From: an uncultured Nitrososphaeraceae archaeon
GTDB lineage: Archaea > Thermoproteota > Nitrososphaeria > Nitrososphaerales > Nitrososphaeraceae
Length of the DNA stretch: 64,000 nt
Assembly (NCBI GenBank): GCA_963825865.1
Contig: CAWGVG010000026.1
Coordinates: forward strand, 1 to 64,000
Direction of reading: 5' to 3'
Part shown: positions 4,532 through 54,857 of the stretch, one piece after another
Layout of the letters: each line of letters opens with the position of its first letter
Position numbering within the stretch: the stretch's first letter is position 1
Made by a program: the position numbers and the translations under genes
The notes under the pieces: model-generated
The model's database searches: none
What the model was told of the DNA's origin: nothing
What the model saw: the letters and a program-made list of their open reading frames with translations, nothing else

Positions 4532-4903
4532 CTACTTAATAACAGCTCCAACGTCAACATCTTCTTCTTCTTCTGCAACAGTAAGAAATATTGGCCTTCC
4601 TTTAGGTCCATCGGCAGCAAGTAACATTCCATTTGAAACTATACCACCGATTTTTTTAGGTTCTAGATTTGTACAAACTACTACTACTTTACTAACTAAT
4701 TCTTCTGGTTTGTAGAATGGCGCAGCTCCGACAACCAAATCCCTTTGATCTGCTCCAATATCGACCCTTATCTTAAATACCTTTTTCATACCCGGTACAC
4801 CTTCTGCTTGGATAACTTTACCAATTTTCAAACGTACCTTTGAAAACTCCTCGTATGAAATGTAGTCTTCTTGTTCTCCTTGTTTTTGCTGGGATTTACT
4901 CAC
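4532..4903 (-). CDS. tRNA-binding OB-fold protein (CsaA/Trbp111/MetRS C-terminal-like)
   Basis: ISYEEFSKVRLKIGKV and VVCTNLEPKKIGGIVSNGMLLAA. Confidence 0.9.
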   Translation of the reverse strand: MSKSQQKQGEQEDYISYEEFSKVRLKIGKVIQAEGVPGMKKVFKIRVDIGADQRDLVVGAAPFYKPEELVSKVVVVCTNLEPKKIGGIVSNGMLLAADGPKGRPIFLTVAEEEEDVDVGAVIK

Positions 4904-5242
4904 AAGTTAAAGTTCATCAATAACCAGTTAAAATCATTTGTGCGTAATTTGTATGAGACTACCATTTAGTTGATAGGTCTGTAGACTTGAAGCAATAAAT
5001 TCTGGATCGACATTAACAGATGAAGCTGCTGATTTGCCCTAATAATGTCATTAGCCAATAATATGGTAATGCAACAGATTGTGTATTCATAATAATAATG
5101 ATCGTCTCCTCGCTCTTTTCAGACTAAATTGAACAAATATATAACAATCACTCATATGGGTCTGGGTCTAATCCCTTCGAATTTTCTATCAAGTTATCGA
5201 GTCCTCTTCTTCTAATAAGCAATCTATTTCATTTTTCTATAC

Positions 5243-5759: not shown

Positions 5760-6225
5760 ATGAATAATGATAACAATTTGTCTGAACAGAAAGTAAAGTT
5801 TTCTAAAATACTGATTGCAGCAGACGGTTCAGAAGCATCAATGGATGCAGCAGATTATGCTATTTTGACGGCTAGGAAATACAATTCTGAGCTTATTGCA
5901 TTGCATGTTATTCTATCGGATGTAACTCTATTTGGATCAGTTCCACCAAACCATATAAATGAAATAAAACAAGAAGCTCAAATGTATCTAGATAAAATAA
6001 AAGAAAAATCTTATGAAGACGGTAATAATAATAAAAAAGTTCAATTGAGAACAGAGTTAATTACGTCTACATCTGCTATCGATGGTATTGTATCCTTTGC
6101 TGAAAAGGAAAATATTGATTTAATTGTTATTGGAACAAGAGGAAGGCTTTAAGAAACTGCTGCTAGGAAGTATTGCATCTGGTGTTGTGACTTATGCTCA
6201 TTGTCCTGTAATGGTAGTAAAGTAG
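5760..6225 (+). CDS. Universal stress protein (UspA family), frameshifted near 6145
   Basis: KILIAADGSEAS...DLIVIGTRG, then in another frame GFKKLLLGSIASGVVTYAHCPVMVVK*. Confidence 0.85.
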
Positions 6226-6410
6226 CAGGACTTAAAAGCTAGCACTTGATGCAGTAAAGGGCCTTGAATTTTTGAGCTGCACGAATCGATTTTGGTGCAC
6301 TCACTGAACCTAATGTAGGTGAACCCCTTAACTACAAGGAATTAAATCCCACCCAGTCCACTAATCTAGTGTGGTAGAAGTACTCACATTTTCTGAACTC
6401 GTTTTGGAGA

Positions 6411-6550
6411 AATTGTTAACAATTTTGGGGCTGACCTGACTCAAAAATCTCAAATTGTTAACAAAAATGTTAACAAAAGTTTGTTAAATGTGAATTTTAT
6501 GTTAACAACTAGGATTTTATGTTAACAAGGAAAATTTTTTGTTAACAAAA
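6411..6550. repeat. Array of palindromic TGTTAACA sites
   Basis: Perfect copies at 6414, 6456, 6468, 6500, 6520 and 6540, plus a degenerate copy at 6482. Confidence 0.9.
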
Positions 6551-6602
6551 AACTAATTCTGAAATATTGGACTTACTTTTTATGTGTCACTAAAACTGTC
6601 AA

Positions 6603-6794
6603 TTACTTTATTTTCCAAAATAACCTATACCTCCCAATCTTCTTCCACTTGATATTTTTCTTAGTATTAACTAGCTCTAACAATGCCCCTTGAACTGTTT
6701 TTTGATTAAGATCAATTCTGTCTGCAATTTCATTTGGGGTCTCTGGTTCAGAACTTAGAGCATTGTACACCTTATCTAGAGTTTCTAAGGACAA
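6603..6794 (-). CDS. Small winged-helix DNA-binding protein
   Basis: TPNEIADRIDLNQKTVQGALLEL helix-turn-helix followed by a wing KWKKIGRYRLFW. Confidence 0.75.
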   Translation of the reverse strand: MSLETLDKVYNALSSEPETPNEIADRIDLNQKTVQGALLELVNTKKNIKWKKIGRYRLFWKIK

Positions 6795-7445
6795 TTTCTC
6801 GTGTCAGCAAACTACATAATACATCTAAGTATTAATACTTATAATCAGTACCTGATAATCCGAAATGCTTATATGGATACTTATACATAGGACTGATGGT
6901 CAGTACTATGAGTGTTAAAGAACATGGCTTGGACAAACAATCAGAGATAGTATCTTCTAAAACAAAGAGTGAATGAAAGACAATTGGTGTGAGAATCAAG
7001 TCGCAAATTGATTCAAAAGAACTGAGGGAAGAACGCCTTGCATCCCTTATTCCAGAAATGCGATAATTTAAAATTTGAATATATGCAAACTAAAGATATA
7101 GTTAATGTTCTTGAAAAAGGATCTGTATTAATAGAATTTGTTCGCTTTTCAATGTAATAAAAGTAATAATTTGTACTAAAGTATATGTGCCATATTGCAG
7201 GCTTATGCGCTTCCTTACTAACCACCAATTTGCAGGATAACTTGTGAAAAAATAATGGTCATACCTGTCTGGATCATAAACCGGAATACAGGTTCAGTTG
7301 AATTTGCATGCCATGTCCTATCAAATATACCGACTGCTTTGCTGCTTTTGGCCTGTCATTTTAACTACGATCGACTGCTGTCATTTTAAAATGTAAAATG
7401 TCAAAGAAAGAAAAAGTATAGGGAGACAATAAACAATTGACTCGT

Positions 7446-8369
7446 CTAATTAGAGTATTTCAGACCTGCCTCTAACTTGCGAATTCTATCAAGTATATTT
7501 GAATGGTCAGCTTCTACTTCTGTAGTTACATAAAGAAGAAGATCATTTCCAAACGGCATAGTAATGCGCTTGATCTTTTCATATTCTGCCAAAACGTACT
7601 TCCCTTTTCCAATCTTTGGTGCAAGTCGGCTGCGTGTTTTCCACGAATTCATAGCAAGATTAAGTGACTGTTTGCTTTCATCATCGTTGAGTAAATTCTT
7701 TATGCCTTGACGGTGGCGAGAGTACATAATTTTGCCATTTGTATCACATATAGTAACTAACCTAATATCTGGATCTATATTAATAATATCTACATAGTGT
7801 TGCTTTATTTTAAATTCTCTAATCCTTAATAGAGAGCTCATTATAAAACCGAATATTGCTCCCCATATCATATGGTATACAATTGCCATAAGTGCGATAT
7901 TCGTGGTTGAATGGCTCAAGTCCTCAGACAATATCGGCCGTTGTGATGCAATTGCTAGAACAACCACGATACGTTGATTGGAAGGTTGTATCAATAGAGT
8001 GGTTATAGGTAGAAATAAGACTAACCATATCACAATGCCTGCCCCTATACCAACCAAGATACTTTTATAGGGATTGAGCATACGAATTTTTCTCCATCTA
8101 ATCCCAACTGCACCAAGCACTGCTCCTAGTGCCGTCCCAGTAAGTAGATGAAGGCCAAATCCCAAGTATGCTGCAGTTGTAGCATTATTTAGCCCCAGGC
8201 TGATGCCTATAATAGAATAAAATGTACTTATTTGTAGGCGTAAAGCAATCTCGGATGCTGCAATAGCTGAAGATATTGACCAAGTTGCAATAAAACCAGC
8301 TAACGCTCCATATTTTGCTCCTTTGAATGTCACTATTAGTTTATTATTATTTTTGAGCTTTGAGATCAT
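7446..8369 (-). CDS. Multi-pass membrane protein with C-terminal DUF6659-like (roadblock/profilin-like) domain
   Basis: About four hydrophobic segments, then IDPDIRLVTICDTNGK...KIGKGKYVLAEYEKIKRITMP; domain shared with 11911..12417. Confidence 0.7.
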   Translation of the reverse strand: MISKLKNNNKLIVTFKGAKYGALAGFIATWSISSAIAASEIALRLQISTFYSIIGISLGLNNATTAAYLGFGLHLLTGTALGAVLGAVGIRWRKIRMLNPYKSILVGIGAGIVIWLVLFLPITTLLIQPSNQRIVVVLAIASQRPILSEDLSHSTTNIALMAIVYHMIWGAIFGFIMSSLLRIREFKIKQHYVDIINIDPDIRLVTICDTNGKIMYSRHRQGIKNLLNDDESKQSLNLAMNSWKTRSRLAPKIGKGKYVLAEYEKIKRITMPFGNDLLLYVTTEVEADHSNILDRIRKLEAGLKYSN

Positions 8370-8387
8370 GTAACTATCTTCCTTTTT

Positions 8388-8561
8388 TTACCACCTAGTG
8401 ATACTGACCACTAGAGTTTTTATTTGGTTGAACATACAACGCTTTATTTGTATATCATAGTCAATTTTACATGCTGTAAAATGCCATGCTAATTCAAACG
8501 CAAGATAGCAAATGGCTAGCCCAAGAAATGAGGATATATCTAAGTTTAATTGCTCTAACAT
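8388..8561 (-). CDS. Small membrane protein, probably co-transcribed with 7446..8369
   Basis: MLEQLNLDISSFLGLAICYLAFELAWHFTACK single TM; ends 18 bp before the downstream start. Confidence 0.45.
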   Translation of the reverse strand: MLEQLNLDISSFLGLAICYLAFELAWHFTACKIDYDIQIKRCMFNQIKTLVVSITRW

Positions 8562-8847
8562 AAGTATGAAGTAGCAATTAGACTGATATAAGATCTCTTG
8601 TTTAAAAACTAAACATCCAAAAAATAAAAAAGCTAATAATTTAATATCTGTTAAGTATAATAGATACAACAACCTATTAACATATCATGTGTAAAGTCAT
8701 TTCCCGAAATCTTATCAGGTTTCCTATTATAATATGTGTTTTACTTGGCAGTTTCAAAAAACCCATATTCTGGGACTGCTGTTTTAATCAGAAATTAATT
8801 AAAAACTATGCATTATTATATTAAATGCAAGTTAAATCCTGACTGAA

Positions 8848-9048
8848 TTTACTAGTGGAAATATTCAATCCGGCAGCTACACTGTTCAAGGCACAGAAAC
8901 AGTTGACAACCTATGTTTTGTCAGCACCACTGTTCCTGCTGCTATTACCATAAATGGACAATGTGGAACAGGAGTAACAATAAATTTCAGAGCCGCTAAT
9001 GGTCAGACAGCAACATTTGCTGGCAATGTAAATTGCGTCTCGTCTTAA
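8848..9048 (+). pseudogene. C-terminal fragment of a probable secreted beta-rich, Cys-containing protein
   Basis: FTSGNIQSGSYTVQGTETVDNLC...ITINGQCGTGVTINFRAANGQTATFAGNVNC*; no start. Confidence 0.5.
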
Positions 9049-9496
9049 TCAATACTGGAGATACACCAGTTGATGATGATAATATATGAGCACTCAGCAA
9101 ATAGATATCCAACTTTTCCTTTTCTTTTTGATATCAACATTTTAAAGTCATAATAACAATAAAAAAATTGTACTCATCTTTACAGGTTTGATATGTCTGC
9201 AGAGAATCTTGATATGTCTTTCTTGTCGTTCCCATAATCAATAACTTTTGGATATCTGTTGAACTGCCATTCAACAGGTGGAATACCCAGTTATTGTTGT
9301 TCTTTCCTCTTTGGAATAATAGTATCGAATACAGGATAAATGACATCTTACAGATAGGAGTAATGCGATTGCTTACATAACTGTTGATCTTTGTCCATAG
9401 ATACTATAGATCTATAGATACTATAGGTTTTACATGGTATTTAACACCATTAAAAGCCATTAGTTTATATTTCGACTTTGAATCAGTACCTGTGAC

Positions 9497-10045
9497 ATGT
9501 CTACAAGAAAAGAACAACGAAAAGATGAAGAGACAACTACAACAACCACATCTCCATCACAAGTCCAGCAAGAACAGCGACAATCTTTCAACAGAGCATT
9601 AGATGAAACTAAAGATAATATTAGAAGAGCAACAGATGAAGCAAGGAGAGATATTCCACGTTACACTCAAGCAGTTAATGAATATCATGAACAAACAATT
9701 CAAGCTGCAAGAGAGATAGCAGATAACTACCTAGAATCACAAAAGGAGATTATAAATTCATTGCAGTCAGCATGGCTCCCCCAGATAGAGGCGGCAAACA
9801 GAGTATTTACATCAAACTGGATGGTATCTCCAAGACATTTGGCTGACAACTATGCAAGGATAGTTAGCAGCTTTGCAGATAATACAGTAGCTGCAACTAG
9901 ACTAGTGAACAACACTATATTTGCAAACCTAGAAGCATTCAAGTCATCTGTTCAGAATGCAAAGGAGTTTTCTAGAATAAGTGTTAATGCGGCAAAAGCA
10001 TTTGGGGAAGCATCAAGAGATACCACAACACGTTTCTCTTACTAG
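9497..10045 (+). CDS. Amphipathic all-helical protein, possibly phasin-like
   Basis: Ala/Gln/Asn/Glu-rich helical sequence without TM segments or catalytic motifs; function is inference. Confidence 0.6.
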   Translation: MSTRKEQRKDEETTTTTTSPSQVQQEQRQSFNRALDETKDNIRRATDEARRDIPRYTQAVNEYHEQTIQAAREIADNYLESQKEIINSLQSAWLPQIEAANRVFTSNWMVSPRHLADNYARIVSSFADNTVAATRLVNNTIFANLEAFKSSVQNAKEFSRISVNAAKAFGEASRDTTTRFSY

Positions 10046-23454: not shown

Positions 23455-24642
23455 CTATGATAGAAAAATCTGTCGTTGATTATTATTTGTAACCAGAACT
23501 CTTTCTGTGTCATCTTCTCCTTGCCTTATCAATTTCCTTATGGTAGCGACTGAAAAGTCCGCATCTTCAAATAGGAAATGAGTTTTTTCTGGTCTTTCTA
23601 TACGCACGATTTCCTTTATTATTGCGCCGCGTTTACGGGCAAGTTTATTGTACTCAAGTTCCATTTTGTCAAATCTGTCTTTTAATAATTCTACGTCATC
23701 ATTGCCTTTTTCTTTGAGTTTGAGATTACTAGTGATCATCATCAGCAAATCATGCATTTCTTTTAAAAGTGATAAATGTCTTGATATAATTTTTGACAAT
23801 CTGACATTATTATCTGTCTTATCGGTGTAAATTATGTCTCTGGCTCTATGCCAGGCCTCGAACATGTCTTGTGGAAGCTCTTTTTGGTAGTGAGGGAAAA
23901 TATTAACCAAATAAACCATTTTATCTAATACAGGGGAAGCATCTATAACTTCGCGTAGTGGAGTATTGCTAAGTAGAGCACCATCCCACAGATATCTGCC
24001 ATCTTTTTGCGTCCATGCTATACCATAGAAAGGAAAACCAGCACTTGCAATAACATGATCTGCATTAATATTGGTATGCTTGCTGTCAGATATGACGGGC
24101 TCGCTTGTTTGTATGTCTGTAGAAGTTACAATCAATCTAGGTTTATTTGGGTTTCCTAATTTGGTAAAATCAACATAGCGGCTCAGAGTTCTCTTAAGAG
24201 GTGTTATATCAAATAGTGGATACGGCAATGGTCTAAATGGTTGAAGGTAGTTGAAAAAACCTGATACAATCCATCTTGGAAAGAAAGCATTAGGATTTCC
24301 ATACATGGCAGAATATATTGATGCTAAAATAGCCCTCGACTCATCTGTAAAATATAATGATGAAAATTGTTGTGGTAAAGGTATAAGAGTTTCTGCGAGT
24401 TCTAACCAAAAGGCTTCAAGTTCTTTTGCAGCATTTTTAACACTATCGCAGTTATTAGAAGCAGCAGCTATTATTGTTGCATTAAGAGCTCCAATCGATG
24501 TACCTGACACGATATCGAATTTTATGTTATGTTTTGCAAGGGTTTTGTATACTCCACATTCATATGCGCCAAGTGAACCTCCTCCTTGCAGTACAAGAAC
24601 TGTTTCTGCGGATAATTCTTCTTTATTTCTGTTGATTTCCAT
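23455..24642 (-). CDS. Patatin-like phospholipase/esterase
   Basis: LQGGGSLGAY, GTSIG (catalytic Ser) and WDGALLSNTP (catalytic Asp). Confidence 0.95.
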   Translation of the reverse strand: MEINRNKEELSAETVLVLQGGGSLGAYECGVYKTLAKHNIKFDIVSGTSIGALNATIIAAASNNCDSVKNAAKELEAFWLELAETLIPLPQQFSSLYFTDESRAILASIYSAMYGNPNAFFPRWIVSGFFNYLQPFRPLPYPLFDITPLKRTLSRYVDFTKLGNPNKPRLIVTSTDIQTSEPVISDSKHTNINADHVIASAGFPFYGIAWTQKDGRYLWDGALLSNTPLREVIDASPVLDKMVYLVNIFPHYQKELPQDMFEAWHRARDIIYTDKTDNNVRLSKIISRHLSLLKEMHDLLMMITSNLKLKEKGNDDVELLKDRFDKMELEYNKLARKRGAIIKEIVRIERPEKTHFLFEDADFSVATIRKLIRQGEDDTERVLVTNNNQRQIFLS

Positions 24643-25263: not shown

Positions 25264-25539
25264 TTTGAGTTAACATATCCATCTCTTTTGATGTATGTTA
25301 ACAATAATGATAATCAATTTTTTGTTTTGTCTAGCATATTAGTTGCTTTATCAGTACTATTTTGTAGGTATTGATTGTTTATATCAAACTCTTAAAAGAT
25401 ATACTGTACCTATTATGAACAATATCTTCATACAACTTTCAAAATATGCCTCAGAAGAAGTTTAGTTTTGGCATAACTACAGAAAAAGGTTAGCTAAGGT
25501 TGTGCTCAAATTTAATATATTGATAATATGAAATACCTC

Positions 25540-25630
25540 CGCCACATAGAAGAAGGTACTCTTGAAGAATACAATCTAACATGTCCTTGGCATGACGGTG
25601 TTTTCGATGTGCGGGATACAACAGTATACT
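25540..25630 (+). pseudogene. Rieske-type ferredoxin fragment
   Basis: EGTLEEYNLTCPWHDGVFDVRD contains the second Rieske motif CPWH. Confidence 0.7.
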
Positions 25631-25679
25631 GTATACTTTCAGATCAAACTCCTTGGGCTGCATTTTATTTAAGGGATTG

Positions 25680-25924
25680 CAAATGTCCTGCGAAAGTAAA
25701 GCATAGTACAGTAATTCCTGGTAATCGAAAATGGGTTTTTCTAATCCGTCTTTTGTTGGCAACCCAATAATGTGGTTAAAGCAGCACTCTCCTTTTGTCC
25801 TGATATCTTCTTGTTTGTGCTCTTCTATATTCCAAATCCAGAATGGCTTGTTCTGTAATTTGTCAAAGGACTGCGTTTGTTGTTGGTTACTGCTTATTAT
25901 CCTCTTCAGATCTTTGAATGTCAT
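25680..25924 (-). pseudogene. N-terminal fragment of a terminase large subunit-like ATPase
   Basis: KPFWIWNIEEHK...CCFNHIIGLPTKDG..KPIFDYQ (adenine-binding YQ motif); breaks before Walker A. Family call from recall. Confidence 0.6.
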
Positions 25925-26017
25925 TGTTATTATGTTTCTTATCTACAGTAACAGCGTCACCAACTTTATGCTTTTCATTTTCTCCTTTTCCAGAGGCACG
26001 TAATCATAAGCGTGTGT

Positions 26018-26275
26018 TTATTTTGCAAATATGGCAAGCTGTTTTGTTATCTCGATCATCTTCTTCATATCCTTGCCTATTGGAGAAAACTTATGACCAA
26101 ACATTATATGCTCTACGCCCATCGCTTTGATTCGATCAATGTCAGCTCCAATTTGGTCAATGGTACCGGTCATAGGCAATCTCTGTTGATCTGAGGAGGA
26201 GGAAGTTGCAGAAGAAGAAGAGGAAGAGTCTAGCACATTTGGGTACGTCAACGCAAATACACGAATCTTCCCCCC
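26018..26275 (-). pseudogene. LLM-class flavin/F420-dependent oxidoreductase C-terminal fragment
   Basis: RLPMTGTIDQIGADIDRIKAMGVEHIMFG. Confidence 0.65.
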
Positions 26276-26291
26276 GTGTGCACAACAATAA

Positions 26292-26700
26292 TCAAAAAAC
26301 TTGATTTATTGTTATTTGCCCAGTTTCCTGTTCTTGCTTTTCTTCCCCTACTTTAACACATTTTTGATCGTCATAATCAGGCTCATTAGGTTCTTTCTTG
26401 TTGTCTTCATTGCCGCTGCCATCAGTATGTATCTTCTCTCTCCTGTCTTCTGCCTGCTGCGAGGTATTCCATGCTTCCCTCAGGATTGCTGTCAATCCTA
26501 CCAGACATTTCTCGTACTCTTCTGGCAGCCTTTCGTCAATGTATTTTTTGATGTTATCTTTTGCTTGTTGTCTTAGATAAGAAATCCCTGTTAACTGTAC
26601 CAATACTTACTTGTACTATAGATGCTATCTCTGGCTGGCTATGGCCTTGGCTATCAAGTTCTGCTACTTTGCTCCTTCGCCATGCGATTTACTGCTGCAT
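26292..26700 (-). pseudogene. HTH plus helical protein (terminase small subunit-like), disrupted
   Basis: IAWRRSKVAELDSQGHSQPEIASIVQVSIGTVNRD / SYLRQQAKDNIKKYIDERLPEEYEKCLVGLTAILREAW; lies upstream of the TerL-like fragment on the same strand. Confidence 0.6.
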
Positions 26701-26723
26701 TTGCGCGTGTCATAATGATAGTT

Positions 26724-27257
26724 CTATTCTGCCTTAGTTAAAACACGATCTCTAACTTCGACACGAATATCTACAAGAGCAAAGTGAATATCTATGCAGT
26801 CTTCTAATCTTTCATCGATTTCACTGCGAGTAATGTCTCTATAATTTGTTTGTCCTCTATCATCATATGATATAAGCCTAATTCTATCCGTATAGTTCTT
26901 TGCCAGGAATCCATCTGATGTATCAAGCATCGAATGAGCTAGGAAGTTACGAAATTGCCTGATTTTGTTCAAGTCCCTTATTAGCTTAGGATATCGTTGA
27001 GTTAGATCATGATAGTGTATATCAAGAATCTTTTCTAAGATTTCGATTCCAGATGCAAAAGTATAGTCGCTGCCATTCAATATAAGAGAAATAAACTGTT
27101 TATGCTTCTCTTCATCAGAACAGAAATGATATGAAATAATGTCTTTAACTAGTTCTTCAATAGGGATTACATGAGCTAGATAAGCTCCGCGTATAACCAT
27201 ATCGTATTCAATAACTTTGGCAACTTTTTCGTTTCTGTCGTTGGTGATGTTTGACAA
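26724..27257 (-). CDS. HEPN-like domain protein
   Basis: Helical protein with IEELVKDII and the RxxxxH motif RNFLAH. Confidence 0.6.
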   Translation of the reverse strand: MSNITNDRNEKVAKVIEYDMVIRGAYLAHVIPIEELVKDIISYHFCSDEEKHKQFISLILNGSDYTFASGIEILEKILDIHYHDLTQRYPKLIRDLNKIRQFRNFLAHSMLDTSDGFLAKNYTDRIRLISYDDRGQTNYRDITRSEIDERLEDCIDIHFALVDIRVEVRDRVLTKAE

Positions 27258-27767
27258 TTTTCAATTATTTGACATGTCGTCTTTGGCTATTTAGTGTTGA
27301 TGCATCCAAAACATTTTAGACCAACACAAATACATGTAGAGTCTAATGCTATTATATTAACTGGATGATATAGTGCCACAATTGTTTATCTTCACAAGGT
27401 ATAATTGAGTAACTTGTGAACACGGATATATTTTTCCTAAAATATTGTGGGAATTAACATTATTGACTGGCACTATAAGTGCAGGGGAAAACCAGACATG
27501 CATGATTAATAACCTCAGACTCGCACCACCGGCACCTCCACCACCAGGTTAAGCTAACAAAACTCTCACTATTTTTTATATTGTGAAAAAATATTACCTA
27601 CTTCAGAACTACTGAAATAGTATTATTTGGGTTATGATTAAGAGTTGCTGATATGTTTTCTAACTCTTGATATGCTAAATTATCTGTCTGATTATTATCC
27701 TGCAAATTATTTGTCTTGATGTAATTGTTTGTTTACATTGTAATGGTTTCAACCCCAAATTCTCCAG

Positions 27768-28196
27768 ATGGCTTATTCGAAAAAAGAGACATGTATCTAC
27801 AAGCGTTTATTACTAGATTATACTTATGGTCTTGATAAGATATACACTAAAGAAATAGAAAAAGCAAAGGCTTCTCCAAGTTTTGAGCGAGAATACAACT
27901 TAAAGTATCTTGGAGGTATTGGCAATATTTTTAGTCCTTCTGATATAGATGCTGCAATCAAAGAATACGATATAGTACAATATCCTCCTGATATTCATGG
28001 CGTGATGGGATTAGATCCTGGATGGGGTACAAGTGCTTTTGGTATAGTCATAACCCATTTCGTAGATGGTCTTATCAAAGTAGTACATGCCGATGAACAT
28101 AGCAGATCTGACCATAGTGAGATGTTAGAGCTTGTCTCGGGATCTTATTCAAAAATAACTTGTCAAAAGGTATGCCCTGGTTACGAATTGCAATAA
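27768..28196 (+). pseudogene. Terminase large subunit C-terminal (RNase H-like nuclease) fragment
   Basis: FEREYNLKYLGGIGNIF hinge followed by MGLDPGWGTSAFGIV (hhGhDxG nuclease motif). Confidence 0.7.
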
Positions 28197-28728
28197 TGTC
28201 TTTTATTTTGCAACAACACAACGAGACGAAAACTAACAATAGTTGCTATTTTTATGGCAGCAACACTAGTAGTAGGAACATTCGCAGTAACAACAACCAC
28301 AATAGCAACAACAGGACAATCAGCATTTGCTTATTCACAAAAGAAGAAAGGAGTAGGAGAAGAGAGTAGAAACGGTAACACAATTACCATTCAGAAATAC
28401 AAACAAGCAGCGTCACAAAGTGGATTTGATAACAACCAAGGGCAGGAATGTGAAAACCTGATATGTACTCATCCACATGAAAATGCAACTTGTACACAAG
28501 AAGGAGCTGTTGCTGTAACACCAATACCAACACCTAAAACTTGCGAAGAATGTATCACGACTATACTTACGCCCTATACTTACGCCCCAACAGATAACTG
28601 CGCTTGTACATGCATTAAAGGATACAGAGCCGTACAAACTTTCTAACCGTATATCAGAGGATAGCCTAGCCAATCAGCTAGTGCAATGTCTACTAAATGC
28701 TGGAGTACATATAACTAATCCTACTTAG
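28196..28728 (+). CDS. Secreted Cys-rich protein, paralogue A (frameshifted)
   Basis: Signal-like MAATLVVGTFAV...AFA; GNTITIQ, QECENLICTHP, NATCTQE and TCEEC; C-terminus LVQCLLNAGV in another frame. Confidence 0.65.
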
Positions 28729-29100
28729 CTATACACAAGGGAAGTAAAACACACCTTCCCTATTTTTTATATCGCAGCAGAGAAAGGCCTGAGTAGAGTA
28801 TTAATTATTCTTTATTAACTTTAGTCATCCTTCTATTAGCTCCTGATAATCTCTTCAGTAAAAAATACTAAGGACTGAGACTACTTCCTACTGACGAGAG
28901 AAAATTTGTAAGGACTTGATTAATAGAGTTGTCTAGTAATATGGTATAATTGAACTACTATTGATAGGTAAATAAGTAATTTAGCATCATATGATATCCT
29001 TAATAGTTATACAAAATAAGTTAGCACCAAATTATATTAAATAAGTCAGCAATAACTTACTCAAGTCAAATATATCAATGACTTTGAATTGAGTACATAT

Positions 29101-29663
29101 ATGAAGAACAATACAACTTCACGATATCTAACAGTAAGCTCGCATCCTAGTGGCAGCAACACTAGTAGTAGGAATAGGAACCTTAGCAACAACTACAAGT
29201 ACTGCATTTGCCTATCAACAAAAGAAGAACAAGGGATCACAAGATAATGGCAAGCAGCAGAAATAATAGTAATAAGAATGGCAACACAGTTACCATAGAG
29301 GAATGCAAGAATAGGGGTTCTGCAAGCAGATTTGATACCGCAGTAGACCAAGAATGTGCAAACCTGATATGTACTCACCCAGCCAACAACGCAACTTGTG
29401 CACAAGAGGAAGTTGTAACACCAAAACCAAAATTAACTTGCGAACAATGTTTTACGACGACACTTAACTCAAAACAGAAAACCGACTTCGAAACTCGATT
29501 TGGAACATTTGTGGACACATGTGCATTTTTTGTGGATCCAGCCGAGGGCCCACCATCAGAAAATAATTTCAGAGCACAGCTTCAGAATTTAGGGATTCCT
29601 CTACCTACAATTAATGAGCTAATAGCGTGTCTAAAACAAGCTGGTATAGTGTTTACGACATAA
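29101..29663 (+). CDS. Secreted Cys-rich protein, paralogue B (frameshifted signal region)
   Basis: GNTVTIEEC, QECANLICTHP, NATCAQE, TCEQC and LIACLKQAGI. Confidence 0.65.
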
Positions 29664-47914: not shown

Positions 47915-48088
47915 TCTAAAAAAATAACCCGACCGAGAATAAATTTAACTTTTCGAACGATAGTGTACTAAGGCATAATTTTAACTGGAATGCATTCGAT
48001 GACGTAAGACACCAAAGTCTGTCTAAGGCATGACAGGTCCCTCTTGACGGTGCAACCTGATACCTTCAGGATCTGCTATTTCTCTCTG
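47915..48088 (-). repeat. Repeat copy A: truncated TerS-like HTH fragment plus conserved tail
   Basis: Reverse complement of 54683-54857; encodes LSQREIA / ILKVSGCTVKRDLSCLRQTLVSYVIECIPVKIMP*. Confidence 0.85.
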
Positions 48089-48273
48089 CGACAATAGCAA
48101 GAACAACACCACTACTAGAAGCAGGTGATCAAGGATCCAATTCCAATGGTGACGGCCTAAAATAGAACATATACACCACAGATAACATCAAGTAATCAAC
48201 CAAAAAAACCAACAACAACTGACATTGAATTGAAACATTTTATAAAACAGCCAGTAATATATAGCAGTAAAAG

Positions 48274-53950: not shown

Positions 53951-54603
53951 TAATCAAGATAGAACTGAATGATATATCGTCAGTGGAAAGAAGATCACAT
54001 CAACGCTGAATCTGGCTCTACCATAGATGTATACACGGAGAAAGCCCGGTCCAGAGCAGCTAACACATGTGTGTGAAAATACGCTAAGAGATTATCTTAA
54101 AAATAACGAACTGGCAATACAATACCACCACTATTTTTTTAGCTTCTTTGAACACTTGATATAGGTTTTCAATGACTCTGTCATAATTGATAGTAACTAT
54201 GTGAGCAAATAATAGAGGATGTGTTGCGTTGCCAGAGATCTAGTAATGACGTTCCCAATTGTCTTTCTGATTTCGCTTAAATCTTCTGTGCTGATTCGTT
54301 GTAAAGCTAATTTTCTTGTATCTGCAAAAGTGCTTAAATAAATCGCAAATGGACCTACATCCTTTAGTGCATCCTTGTAGTCTATGTTGCGTTTAATATT
54401 GAAAGAATGACCTCTAGATCTATTTCACTTTCATTAAAAAATTGATAGTTCTGATATGCCAGATTCATTTATTTACGCCTATCACAAAACGCATAAAGAT
54501 AAGTTCATCCCATTAAAAATGAATAACAAAAACTGGACTTGCATTATCTTTCAAGCGCAGAAATTGAACGCCATTAGAAGATAAGCACGGTTAGATTGAA
54601 CAT

Positions 54604-54857
54604 TTGGGCTTGCAAATTGAACATAAACAAGAAAGAGACAGAATTGATTGGCACAGAAGTAAAGTCCAGGAGCTAAGCAGCCAGAGACAAATAGCACAGA
54701 TATTACAGGTATCTAATGGTACCGTTAACAGACACTTGTCGTACCCTAGAGAGGCTTTGGTGTCTTGTGTCATCCAATGCATTCCAGTTAAAATTACGCC
54801 TTAGCATACTATCGTTCGAAAAGTTAAATTTATTCTCAGTCGGGTTATTTTTTTAGA
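54604..54857 (+). repeat. Repeat copy B: truncated TerS-like HTH fragment plus conserved tail
   Basis: IDWHRSKVQELSSQRQIAQILQVSNGTVNRHLSY is homologous to 26292..26700; 3' part is inverted relative to 47915-48088. Confidence 0.85.

Follow-up and report, generated by a model that had tools for sequence, protein, structure and literature searches.

The window, the whole 64,000-nucleotide stretch of contig C26 of an uncultured Nitrososphaeraceae archaeon that we analysed, carries scattered pieces of a large terminase (TerL)-like gene and of an HTH (TerS-like) partner gene. Intact copies were searched against the window by tblastn. Results showed that all pieces named in the original prediction exist where they had been placed, or within a few bases of it, and that none is a chance match. 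The neighbours also agreed with the earlier description, namely a HEPN gene, secreted proteins and a gene fragment. The features are:

25667-25924, minus strand: TerL-like N-terminal fragment, residues 1-89 of a 507-aa family protein
25925-25983, minus strand: junction/leader between the HTH and TerL genes, in which the 3' end of the HTH gene survives in decayed form
26018-26270, minus strand: captured 3' fragment of a host-type gene, with a 77-aa ORF (26018-26251) between the HTH and TerL genes
26292-26715, minus strand: frameshifted pseudogene of the HTH (TerS-like) partner, from tblastn and six-frame reading
26724-27257, minus strand: HEPN/Abi-like gene, 177 aa, a neighbour outside the module
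27733-28136, plus strand: TerL-like middle fragment, residues 224-367 of the 507-aa protein
28212-29663, plus strand: two tandem genes for secreted Cys-rich small proteins (ORFs 28254-28646 and 29208-29663)
47986-48108, minus strand: third HTH fragment, residues 29-73 (tblastn, E 5e-5)
54454-54795, plus strand: 5' end of a second HTH copy, with a leader of ~150 bp, then residues 1-72, then truncation

The N-terminal TerL fragment shared 89% identity with P0001, an intact 507-aa TerL copy elsewhere in the same genome (E 3e-45, tblastn against the window), and gave a weak phrog_38 TerL match; its ORF (25490-25924) continues past residues 1-89 as unrelated sequence. The middle fragment covers the end of the ATPase domain and the start of the nuclease domain, first catalytic Asp included, and matched P0001 at 61% identity (E 2e-41, tblastn against the window) and phrog_2 TerL at E 0.0013. 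The FDYQ ('YQ') and 'FEREY...GLDPG' motifs are both present in the window ORFs and align with conserved columns of the family, among them the invariant first nuclease Asp. A second copy or an inversion had been proposed for these two pieces, and the second copy held. One inversion-split gene was rejected because the pieces differ both in identity to the intact copy (89% versus 61%) and in closest relative, which is contig C12 for the N-terminal fragment and contig C8 for the middle fragment (71% aa, 86.5% nt). The middle fragment comes from a second, more divergent copy.

Members of the HTH family are 160-200 aa long, and intact relatives of 165-200 aa lie on contigs C17, C59 and C62. In the window, HTH residues 18-200 matched 26688-26295 on the minus strand (E 1e-43, tblastn of intact copies). 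The gene at 26292-26715 is frameshifted because its match spans two frames, residues 18-53 lying in one and residues 53-200 in the other. Two more HTH fragments had been predicted at ~48.0 and 54.6 kb, and both were recovered (E 5e-5 and 5e-18). In the 54.6-kb copy, residues 1-72 matched 54604-54795 on the plus strand (tblastn), upstream homology to C59, C56, C10 and C46 began at 54454-54479, and the leader carried AATTGAAC direct repeats. The 48.0-kb fragment breaks off at the very residue where the 54.6-kb copy ends and continues into the same foreign sequence, and window positions 54682-54857 corresponded to 48088-47915 at 83.5%. Because homologous copies share the triple AATTGAAC repeat at their HTH 5' ends, its frequency does not count as independent enrichment, and the repeat array is only a candidate binding site. 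These results indicate that no fewer than two TerL and three HTH copies have left decayed remains in the window. These remains are dead debris that at present cannot drive anything.

The homology of the pieces to TerL was confirmed through the intact ~500-aa protein, which profile search, catalytic residues and predicted fold agree in identifying as a genuine large terminase. The phrog_2 TerL profile matched residues 65-498 of the intact copy at E 1.5e-19; Pfam Terminase_6C matched only at E 0.029, and searches against NCBIfam and PDB sequences gave nothing useful. The AlphaFold model (pLDDT 89) adopts a terminase fold. In a Foldseek search of the PDB all top matches were terminases, led by the large terminases of T4 (gp17), HK97, Sf6 and D6E (E 3e-17, for T4 gp17, to 1e-13), and among viral predicted structures the model matched TerLs including that of Halogranum tailed virus 1 (E 1.7e-21). 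Its ATPase domain aligned with those of T4 gp17 and P74-26 (Foldseek), and its nuclease domain matched the G20c, SPP1 and RB49 TerL nucleases with a target TM of 0.65-0.73. In an alignment of 30 diverse members, K101, D197/E198 and S229-T230-P231 were invariant or near-invariant, so that the ATPase motifs are kept (a deviant Walker A lysine, the Walker B Asp-Glu and the Ser-Thr-Pro coupling motif). In the nuclease acidic triad D327 and D383 were invariant and D482/D485 near-invariant. Judged by these conserved residues, the family is predicted to be catalytically intact. The same alignment revealed an extra conserved N-terminal segment of ~60 residues with a His...Cys-Cys...His pattern.

The HTH gene had been proposed as the upstream partner of TerL, and in intact loci of other Nitrososphaeraceae it adjoins or overlaps TerL. 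Across nine loci from other genomes, it lies upstream on the same strand and within 1.6 kb of 8 of the 10 full-length TerL genes; of the other two, one has it 3 kb away and the second adjoins a contig end. In L027, L028, L032 and L034 the two ORFs either overlap or are separated by 8-33 bp. HTH and TerL form an operon in which HTH comes first, the usual TerS-TerL order. The modelled HTH protein has its HTH at the N-terminus, followed by two long helices and a disordered acidic tail, and its C-terminus bears a conserved N-x-V-F. The seven best Foldseek PDB matches were all to the G20c/P74-26 small terminase (weak, E 0.15-0.3), while a wide VIA-align search returned only generic helical hairpins (Z ~8). 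No TerS profile matched in Pfam or PHROGs, Pfam giving just weak HTH_7, HTH_38 and HTH_23 matches, and the ESM Atlas held only unnamed or HTH-type Nitrososphaerota clusters. No TerS profile matched and the structural matches to TerS were weak, and 'TerS-like' is used here as a putative label drawn from gene order and architecture.

The stretch between the two genes proved to be a site of cargo. In the window's genome HTH 3'-end remnants precede most TerL 5' ends, and the junction/leader segment is the place where other module copies carry insertions. By blastn, window positions 25974-25667 matched C4 29379-29695 and positions 25983-25938 matched C4 26513-26561; the 2.8-kb cargo of C4 is flanked by an imperfect ~48 bp direct repeat, whose score was reached in 0 of 500 shuffles. 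Cargo between the HTH and TerL genes also occurs in the window and C12 (the gene fragment), C62, L026, L030, C10 and L031. The captured fragment at 26018-26270, found at 7 loci in the window's genome, had no Pfam family at E <= 1; a motif in it suggests what we take to be the C-terminus of a luciferase-like monooxygenase. Fragment, leader and TerL N-terminus recur jointly, window 25674-26270 corresponding to C12 51223-50620 at 85%. The secreted Cys-rich pair was identified with the family member on C62 (tblastn, E 1e-33 and 1e-28). This family has 49 loci in the genome, one of them between HTH and TerL on C62, and members elsewhere often lie beside or within the module.

The module is multi-copy, as predicted. 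In the window's genome there are 46 TerL and 56 HTH loci. Almost all of these are broken, six TerL and six HTH loci spanning 90% or more of the query, and HTH-only and TerL-only pieces are as frequent as pairs. Module matches were found in 47 of 61 Nitrososphaeraceae genomes (a count that includes the window's genome and the unpublished G034) and in 17 of 18 genera, and soil members of the family carry from tens to over 100 pieces in each genome where the pair occurs. A single-protein TerL search of GTDB genomes gave 7 loci, all in Nitrososphaeraceae or Thermoproteota MAGs, and Nitrosopumilaceae genomes gave only weak TerL matches (E 1e-38 or worse). At E <= 1e-3, 3898 protein cluster representatives matched. 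In a soil metagenome the summed contig depth was 105-536 over TerL versus 0 upstream and 14-86 downstream. One 164-nt contig from one soil metatranscriptome run covers part of TerL and is too small for a claim of transcription.

Between intact paralogues inside one genome, dN/dS was 0.067 and 0.073, and intact TerL paralogues are under strong purifying selection. These paralogues are old (dS ~1 or more), and in the TerL tree they group by genome, with three copies in G013 (98/98), two in G045 (100/100) and two in G000 (99/97). Outside large segmental repeats the best copy pairs were 84-86% identical; no near-identical module copies were seen, although MAG assemblies may collapse identical repeats. 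Old paralogues held under purifying selection within one genome would suit a domesticated host family, for example an antiviral one that cuts or mis-packages the DNA of invading tailed viruses and sits in defence islands. Some neighbours point the same way. The HEPN/Abi-like gene of the window, which has only weak Pfam matches (Abi_2, HEPN_AbiU2 and HEPN_Apea, E 5e-4 to 0.02), has a single paralogue, on contig C3, and that too lies ~3 kb from a TerL copy; L026 carries a DUF262-type HEC-05 candidate defence gene (PADLOC, E 4e-47). However, no PADLOC family matched TerL or HTH, 40 of the 46 TerL loci in the window's genome are broken, which is the pattern of a selfish element and not of a maintained host function, and several complete genomes of the family lack the module, among them those of genus g2 (0 of 5). 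We therefore regard domestication as improbable.

The prediction that the module is capsid-less was borne out in the six genomes searched. The HK97 capsid/portal models PF05065, PF04860 and PF05133 had no match in the window's 5-Mb assembly (82% complete), and PF05065 and PF04860 had none in five other copy-rich genomes (90-99% complete), with the proviso that the Pfam capsid/portal models may fail to recognise virus proteins of archaea that have diverged. No portal-sized gene followed TerL in any of the ~17 intact copies with flanks read, the next genes encoding 120-310 aa or being unrelated, and the scanned neighbours of intact pairs gave no Pfam or PHROGs match to virion proteins. A gene-transfer-agent packaging module, one of the forms first suggested, is unsupported because no capsid cluster was found, the genome being without a capsid or portal match.

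Ordinary provirus decay would explain the pieces as leftovers of tailed proviruses whose structural genes were lost or are too divergent to recognise, a divergence to which the possible blindness of the Pfam models lends some weight. No gene of tailed viruses is better conserved than that of TerL, and fragments of it would remain detectable longest. A tailed provirus, Nvie-Pro1, is described from Nitrososphaera (Krupovic et al. 2019, PMC6563490). The searches of downstream genes, scanned neighbours and the six genomes all speak against this account, as do the purifying selection on intact paralogues and the lack of any match to P0001 in IMG/VR viral contigs. The original prediction would have yielded to decay had intact homologues always lain within complete proviruses, and no complete provirus surrounded any of the intact copies with flanks read. 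Decay is in our judgement very unlikely.

The module had been described as a stand-alone pair, which is true of part of the copies. Some intact pairs sit in ~10-kb elements that also encode a tyrosine integrase together with a primase of the PriX type and an AAA ATPase, and because several lie inside such integrase-bearing elements the pair is not always stand-alone. In G079, L049 and L051 are two homologous ~10-kb elements with an ATPase, a PriX primase (Pfam, E 1.8e-13), an HTH-like gene, TerL and an integrase (Pfam Phage_integrase, only E 0.0016), and an integrase also lies downstream of TerL in L033, L034 and L009. No integrase was found beside the module pieces in the window. The window's genome has 9 primase, 5 ATPase and 18 integrase-like loci versus its 46 TerL and 56 HTH loci, counts in which distant queries may miss diverged primase, ATPase or integrase fragments, and none of its near-intact TerL genes is near such a gene. 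Most copies thus show no visible sign of belonging to a 10-kb element. Other pairs, which bear out the stand-alone description, are compact, sharply bounded units of 1.6-3 kb in which the cargo between HTH and TerL varies.

We favour, at a little short of an even chance, the reading that the HTH-TerL operon is the core of a capsid-less, satellite-like mobile-element family spread across Nitrososphaeraceae, of which the window holds the remains. In this proposal the HTH protein, acting as small terminase, would bind the short direct-repeat array found at its gene's 5' end and bring in the TerL-like enzyme, which would cut the element DNA and pump it into procapsids of a putative helper tailed virus. 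The element would live as a satellite because its DNA would enter the helper's procapsids. Long versions would integrate by means of their integrase, and the compact 1.6-3 kb versions without one may be derivatives that persist, or are copied, within a host lineage. Repeated cutting or recombination at the HTH-TerL junction could place cargo exactly there, often separate the two genes and litter the genomes with fragments. The age of the within-genome paralogues (dS ~1 or more) is unexpected for an actively cycling satellite and counts against this reading.

The compact units may instead be elements in their own right. The HTH-TerL pair could be an autonomous IS-like transposable unit of 1.6-3 kb, of which the 10-kb elements merely carry copies; in this view the terminase-derived RNase H-fold nuclease and ATPase would be the transposase, with the HTH protein as the subunit that binds the ends. 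Copy-to-copy homology stops sharply at the unit edges in different contexts, which a small autonomous unit explains at least as well as the satellite view, and the unit is present many times in unrelated contexts with copies 14-25% diverged. One 2.96-kb unit (HTH, a small ORF and TerL) is common to two loci at 84% with unrelated flanks, and L027 contains a 3-kb tandem repeat of the HTH-TerL unit. A 14-kb query against five genomes of one genus gave 243 matches; almost all of those listed were HTH (~4556-5122) and TerL (~6037-7578) blocks, and the flanks did not recur. The copy number (from tens to over 100 pieces in a genome, far above that of other element genes), the co-amplified gene fragment of the window and C12 (85%) and the clustering of paralogues by genome fit the same picture. 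Many intact copies also lie less than 500 bp from contig ends, as is seen with assembly-breaking repeats.

A transposon-like element had been among the predicted forms, and the unit ends did not bear it out because neither inverted repeats nor target-site duplications were found: the aligned left and right homology edges of two subfamilies had no terminal inverted repeats, and two copies inspected had no target-site duplication. Among IS families, IS110, IS200/605 and IS91 are likewise not known to carry either. No empty site was found for two 14-kb loci in their genera, because the flanks, where not unique, are themselves variable or repetitive. The autonomous unit also has to contend with the absence of near-identical copies (best pairs 84-86%, dS ~1 or more) and with HTH-only and TerL-only pieces being as frequent as pairs, and strand transfer is not known from any terminase nuclease. 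We consider this reading possible but doubtful. In its strongest form, a virus terminase would have been turned into the engine of a self-propagating, capsid-free two-gene element, in which the TerS-like protein marks the element, the TerL-like enzyme cuts at the HTH-TerL junction, and the unit is copied to new chromosomal sites and captures host genes and gene fragments where it is cut, a proposal that we likewise hold to be rather unlikely. If this is true, a packaging motor would have given rise to a new class of prokaryotic transposable elements. The satellite-like element family stays our favoured reading of how the module spreads.

A terminase counts as a hallmark of tailed viruses and of herpesviruses. 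The module resembles the Caudoviricetes terminases in the two-domain ATPase-nuclease fold and catalytic motifs of its TerL (T4 gp17, HK97, Sf6 and D6E TerL) and in having a DNA-binding small-subunit gene upstream (G20c/P74-26 TerS). It differs in being multi-copy, with no portal, capsid or tail genes found nearby or in the genome, in the extra ~60-residue N-terminal segment of TerL and in an HTH partner that matches no TerS profile. Satellites of the SaPI/PICI type are integrated, lack some or all capsid genes and use a terminase subunit of their own to direct their DNA into helper capsids; they are bacterial, occur in one or a few copies and usually encode TerS only, relying on the helper's TerL. 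In contrast, the module described here is archaeal and multi-copy and encodes both subunits.

The closest described case is NitKor-E1, a cryptic integrated element of Ca. Nitrosopumilus koreensis AR1, in which TerS lies immediately upstream of TerL together with a tyrosine integrase and no other virion gene (Krupovic et al. 2019, PMC6563490). In the article text its function is called 'enigmatic' and the element is read as a probable virus relic; the survey reports only five TerL hits in 21 thaumarchaeal genomes, states that a terminase had not previously been identified in a non-viral element and leaves the single case unexplained (PMC6563490). Going by that description, the 10-kb versions (G079, L033, L034) share its logic. 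NitKor-E1 is, however, a single element in a marine genome, whereas soil Nitrososphaeraceae genomes hold tens to more than 100 pieces each, and the module here is often 1.6-3 kb long, integrase-free and with cargo between its two genes. A multi-copy TerS/TerL module was found described neither in literature listings and abstracts nor in PMC6563490, whose supplementary tables might list such genes. The present analysis adds that the two-gene core has been amplified throughout the genome and the family and that the space between its genes is a hot spot for cargo.

These findings make a terminase pair free of capsid genes a major repeat family of soil ammonia oxidisers, with thousands of metagenome protein clusters. 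TerL-based virus detection in soil metagenomes will accordingly over-call Nitrososphaeraceae viruses. With this module, the role of a packaging motor outside a virus can be studied in a concrete case, whether that role lies in satellite packaging, in transposition or in defence. The module also explains some of the mosaicism and abundance of fragments in these large archaeal genomes, and its cargo-capture site may move secreted and membrane proteins between strains.

The original prediction was a capsid-less terminase-like module, in which a small-terminase-like (TerS-like) helix-turn-helix (HTH) gene is paired with a gene for a large-terminase-like (TerL-like) protein. ORF listing and local searches defined the following pieces in the window, four of them linked at 25.6-28.2 kb.

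Module pieces and neighbouring genes in the window.
26292-26715, minus strand: HTH gene, frameshifted (E 1e-43)
26018-26251, minus strand: fragment of a gene (77 aa) between the HTH gene and the leader; homology extends to 26270
25925-25983, minus strand: short leader between the gene fragment and the TerL start
25924-25667, minus strand: first 89 codons of the TerL-like gene (E 3e-45)
Between this minus-strand group and the next TerL piece: 177-aa gene with weak HEPN/Abi profile matches
27733-28136, plus strand, 1.8 kb off: codons 224-367 of the TerL-like gene (E 2e-41)
28212-29663: two secreted Cys-rich proteins, behind the second TerL piece
48108-47986, minus strand: HTH fragment (E 5e-5)
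54604-54795, plus strand: HTH fragment (E 5e-18)

Every predicted module piece was borne out, because all five E-values lie far under chance level, and the identity of these pieces as dead fragments of the module is settled. The N-terminal TerL piece was 89% identical to P0001, which is an intact copy of 507 aa from contig C4 of the same genome (4.98 Mb, 62 contigs, 82% complete), and contig C12 matched this piece together with the gene fragment and leader (613 bp, 85%). The middle piece was only 61% identical to P0001; its nearest relative lies on contig C8 (71% aa, 86.5% nt). Contig C3 mirrors the order of HEPN gene and TerL piece, and the sole other HEPN paralogue in the genome lies there, with a nearly full-length TerL gene 3 kb away. 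By sequence comparison, the two TerL pieces are remains of different copies. Since the relatives differ and the order is C3-like, remains of no fewer than two TerL-bearing units and of three HTH copies lie in the window. At 54682-54857 and 47915-48088, the HTH fragments are cut at the same residue (~72) and followed by common foreign sequence, as also at C47:9729-10195 and C27:177487-177953 (83-86% identity), which suggests insertion of, or recombination with, another repeat at a fixed position of the HTH gene. An intact patatin-like phospholipase gene (23455-24642, minus strand; Pfam E 8e-26) adjoins the debris field.

P0001 was barely detected by Pfam (Terminase_6C, E 0.029; DEAD, E 3e-4) and was assigned by PHROGs to phrog_2, large terminase (E 1.5e-19). 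Its AlphaFold model (pLDDT 89) gave only large terminases as top PDB matches (T4 gp17, E 3e-17, then HK97, Sf6 and D6E) and matched viral TerLs, including one from a haloarchaeal tailed virus, in a viral structure library. Across 30 diverse relatives (32-64% identity), the lysine of a K-K-A-x-G-x-G loop, the Walker B Asp-Glu, a Ser-Thr-Pro motif and three nuclease aspartates were invariant or nearly so. Unlike the matched viral terminases, the family carries an extra conserved N-terminal segment of ~60 residues with a His...Cys-Cys...His pattern (F-W-I-W...His...Cys-Cys-F-N-His at P0001 residues 30-60 in the alignment of its relatives), which might bind a metal or a partner. In another Nitrososphaeraceae genome, G079, a TerL-like N-terminal region lies inside an open frame of 831 aa (C10:479960-481033), perhaps a fused version of the protein.

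The HTH protein is 150-200 aa long where its gene is intact. At nine loci of other family genomes, 8 of 10 full-length TerL genes were preceded by a co-oriented HTH gene no more than 1.6 kb away; for the other two it was at 3 kb or the contig ended. At four loci the two ORFs either overlap or are separated by 8-33 bp, and in the window's genome a remnant of the HTH 3' end directly precedes most TerL start codons. The predicted HTH-protein structure has the small-terminase layout: a helix-turn-helix lies at the N-terminus, two long helices follow, and the acidic tail is disordered and closes with a conserved N-x-V-F. The best seven Foldseek rows were G20c/P74-26 small terminase, with weak scores (E 0.15-0.3), and TerS sequence families in Pfam and PHROGs gave no match, so that the protein is TerS-like by position and architecture, not by family membership. 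Around the HTH start codon, two to four copies of an octamer (AATTGAAC in one subfamily, AATGGAAC in another) stood at fixed positions in 10 of 15 inspected 5' ends; it is a candidate binding array for the HTH protein, its repetition reflecting conservation rather than independent enrichment because the HTH copies are homologous. Directly upstream of an intact HTH gene on C62 lies a 126-aa ORF (198728-199108) with an HNH-like Cys/His pattern, recalling the HNH-terminase arrangement of some cos phages.

The capsid-less TerS-like/TerL module is a major repeat family of Nitrososphaeraceae. In the window's genome, tblastn found 46 TerL and 56 HTH loci, only six of each covering at least 90% of the query. 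Matches occurred in 47 of 61 family genomes (including the window's own and the unpublished G034) and 17 of 18 genera, with up to 132 first-look candidates per genome, many with internal stops; genus g2 had none in five genomes, all single-contig or near-complete. Elsewhere in the phylum, one to three weak matches each were present in 12 of 200 genomes. Protein databases held at least 3215 relatives, labelled 'hypothetical' or 'Terminase RNaseH-like domain', and 3898 cluster representatives at E <= 1e-3. Over TerL, small contigs of a soil metagenome stacked up (summed depth 105-536; upstream 0, downstream 14-86). No description of such an amplified module was found in the literature covered, which excluded papers' supplements. 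Within-genome TerL paralogues had dN/dS of 0.067 and 0.073 (dS 1.1 and 2.2), and a tree of 18 intact proteins grouped by genome (three copies in G013, 98/98; two in G045, 100/100; two in the window's genome, 99/97, which also has a second, distant lineage). Diversification of the TerL family therefore takes place inside host lineages, and function is preserved even as most copies decay.

The Pfam HK97 capsid model and two portal-family models found no match in the window's genome. Five further copy-rich genomes (90-99% complete), searched with the capsid model and one of the portal models, likewise gave none; these searches do match in control bacteria. No portal-sized gene followed TerL at intact copies whose surroundings were read, scanned neighbour genes gave no virion match, and a pattern search of IMG/VR with P0001 gave no relative. 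Divergent archaeal capsid proteins could escape the Pfam models. Ordinary provirus decay fits less well and is very improbable. Our tentative preference is for satellite-like integrative elements that form a family and would use their terminase to package element DNA into helper-virus capsids.

Long elements do occur. In G079 (ten contigs), a stretch of ~10 kb is shared by two loci 30 kb apart. Its genes encode an AAA ATPase, a primase of the PriX type (Pfam E 1.8e-13), an HTH-like protein of 151 aa, TerL, two small proteins and, by a weak Pfam match, a tyrosine integrase. The right arm, from TerL through the two small genes to the integrase, is also present at locus L034. At L033 the module is preceded by a helicase-like gene and followed by an integrase; at the C62 locus of the window's genome, the HNH-like gene is on the upstream side and an integrase follows after 2.3 kb. 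These integrase-bearing elements match NitKor-E1 (Krupovic et al. 2019, PMC6563490). In compact units, read between copies 76-86% identical, homology starts either at the pre-TerL leader or 45-150 bp before the HTH gene begins, and it stops within the last TerL codons, with unrelated flanks. A 14-kb query gave 243 matches in five genomes of one genus, with an HTH or TerL block in almost all matches listed. TerL and HTH loci in the window's genome outnumber those of primase (9), ATPase (5) and integrase-like genes (18), which near-intact TerL genes do not adjoin. The main rival, an autonomous transposable unit driven by the terminase, is possible at a clearly lower probability; the module ends examined had neither terminal inverted repeats nor a target-site duplication. 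A 1053-bp repeat (C59:15448-16500 and C61:19930-20979; 99.4% identity) near two TerL copies and an IS630-like ORF just downstream of the C59 TerL (L007:216-779) are probably ordinary insertion sequences. Large segments of 92-98% identity (C20:780-8810 and C22:1-8000; C4:29402-33707 and both C21 ends) include a TerL copy with flanks and stop where contigs end; segmental duplication or assembled strain heterogeneity could account for them.

The HTH-TerL junction is a hot spot for foreign DNA: 2.8 kb with two membrane proteins on C4, the gene fragment in the window and C12, a secreted protein on C62, a 165-aa ORF at L026 (in G013), a 425-aa secreted protein at L030, and foreign DNA on C10 and at L031. 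The C4 insert is bordered by an imperfect ~48-bp direct repeat built from the junction segment, whose score was reached by none of 500 shuffles. As the window and C12 have the same captured fragment, this variant was copied after capture. The small secreted Cys-rich proteins form a multi-copy family (49 loci genome-wide, 8 near-complete) whose members (window 28212-29663; C62:200054-200650) recur beside or between HTH and TerL genes; in other genomes, secreted or membrane proteins that are not homologous to them take these positions. Directly downstream of the intact L026 unit lies a 753-aa DUF262-type protein (7647-9905) with a match to HEC-05, a candidate system in PADLOC (E 4e-47); with the HEPN neighbour in the window, it hints at co-location with defence genes. 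A domesticated or defence role of the module fits less well and is improbable. For satellite-like elements packaged by their own terminase, cutting or recombination at the HTH-TerL junction would lead to cargo capture, gene separation and debris.
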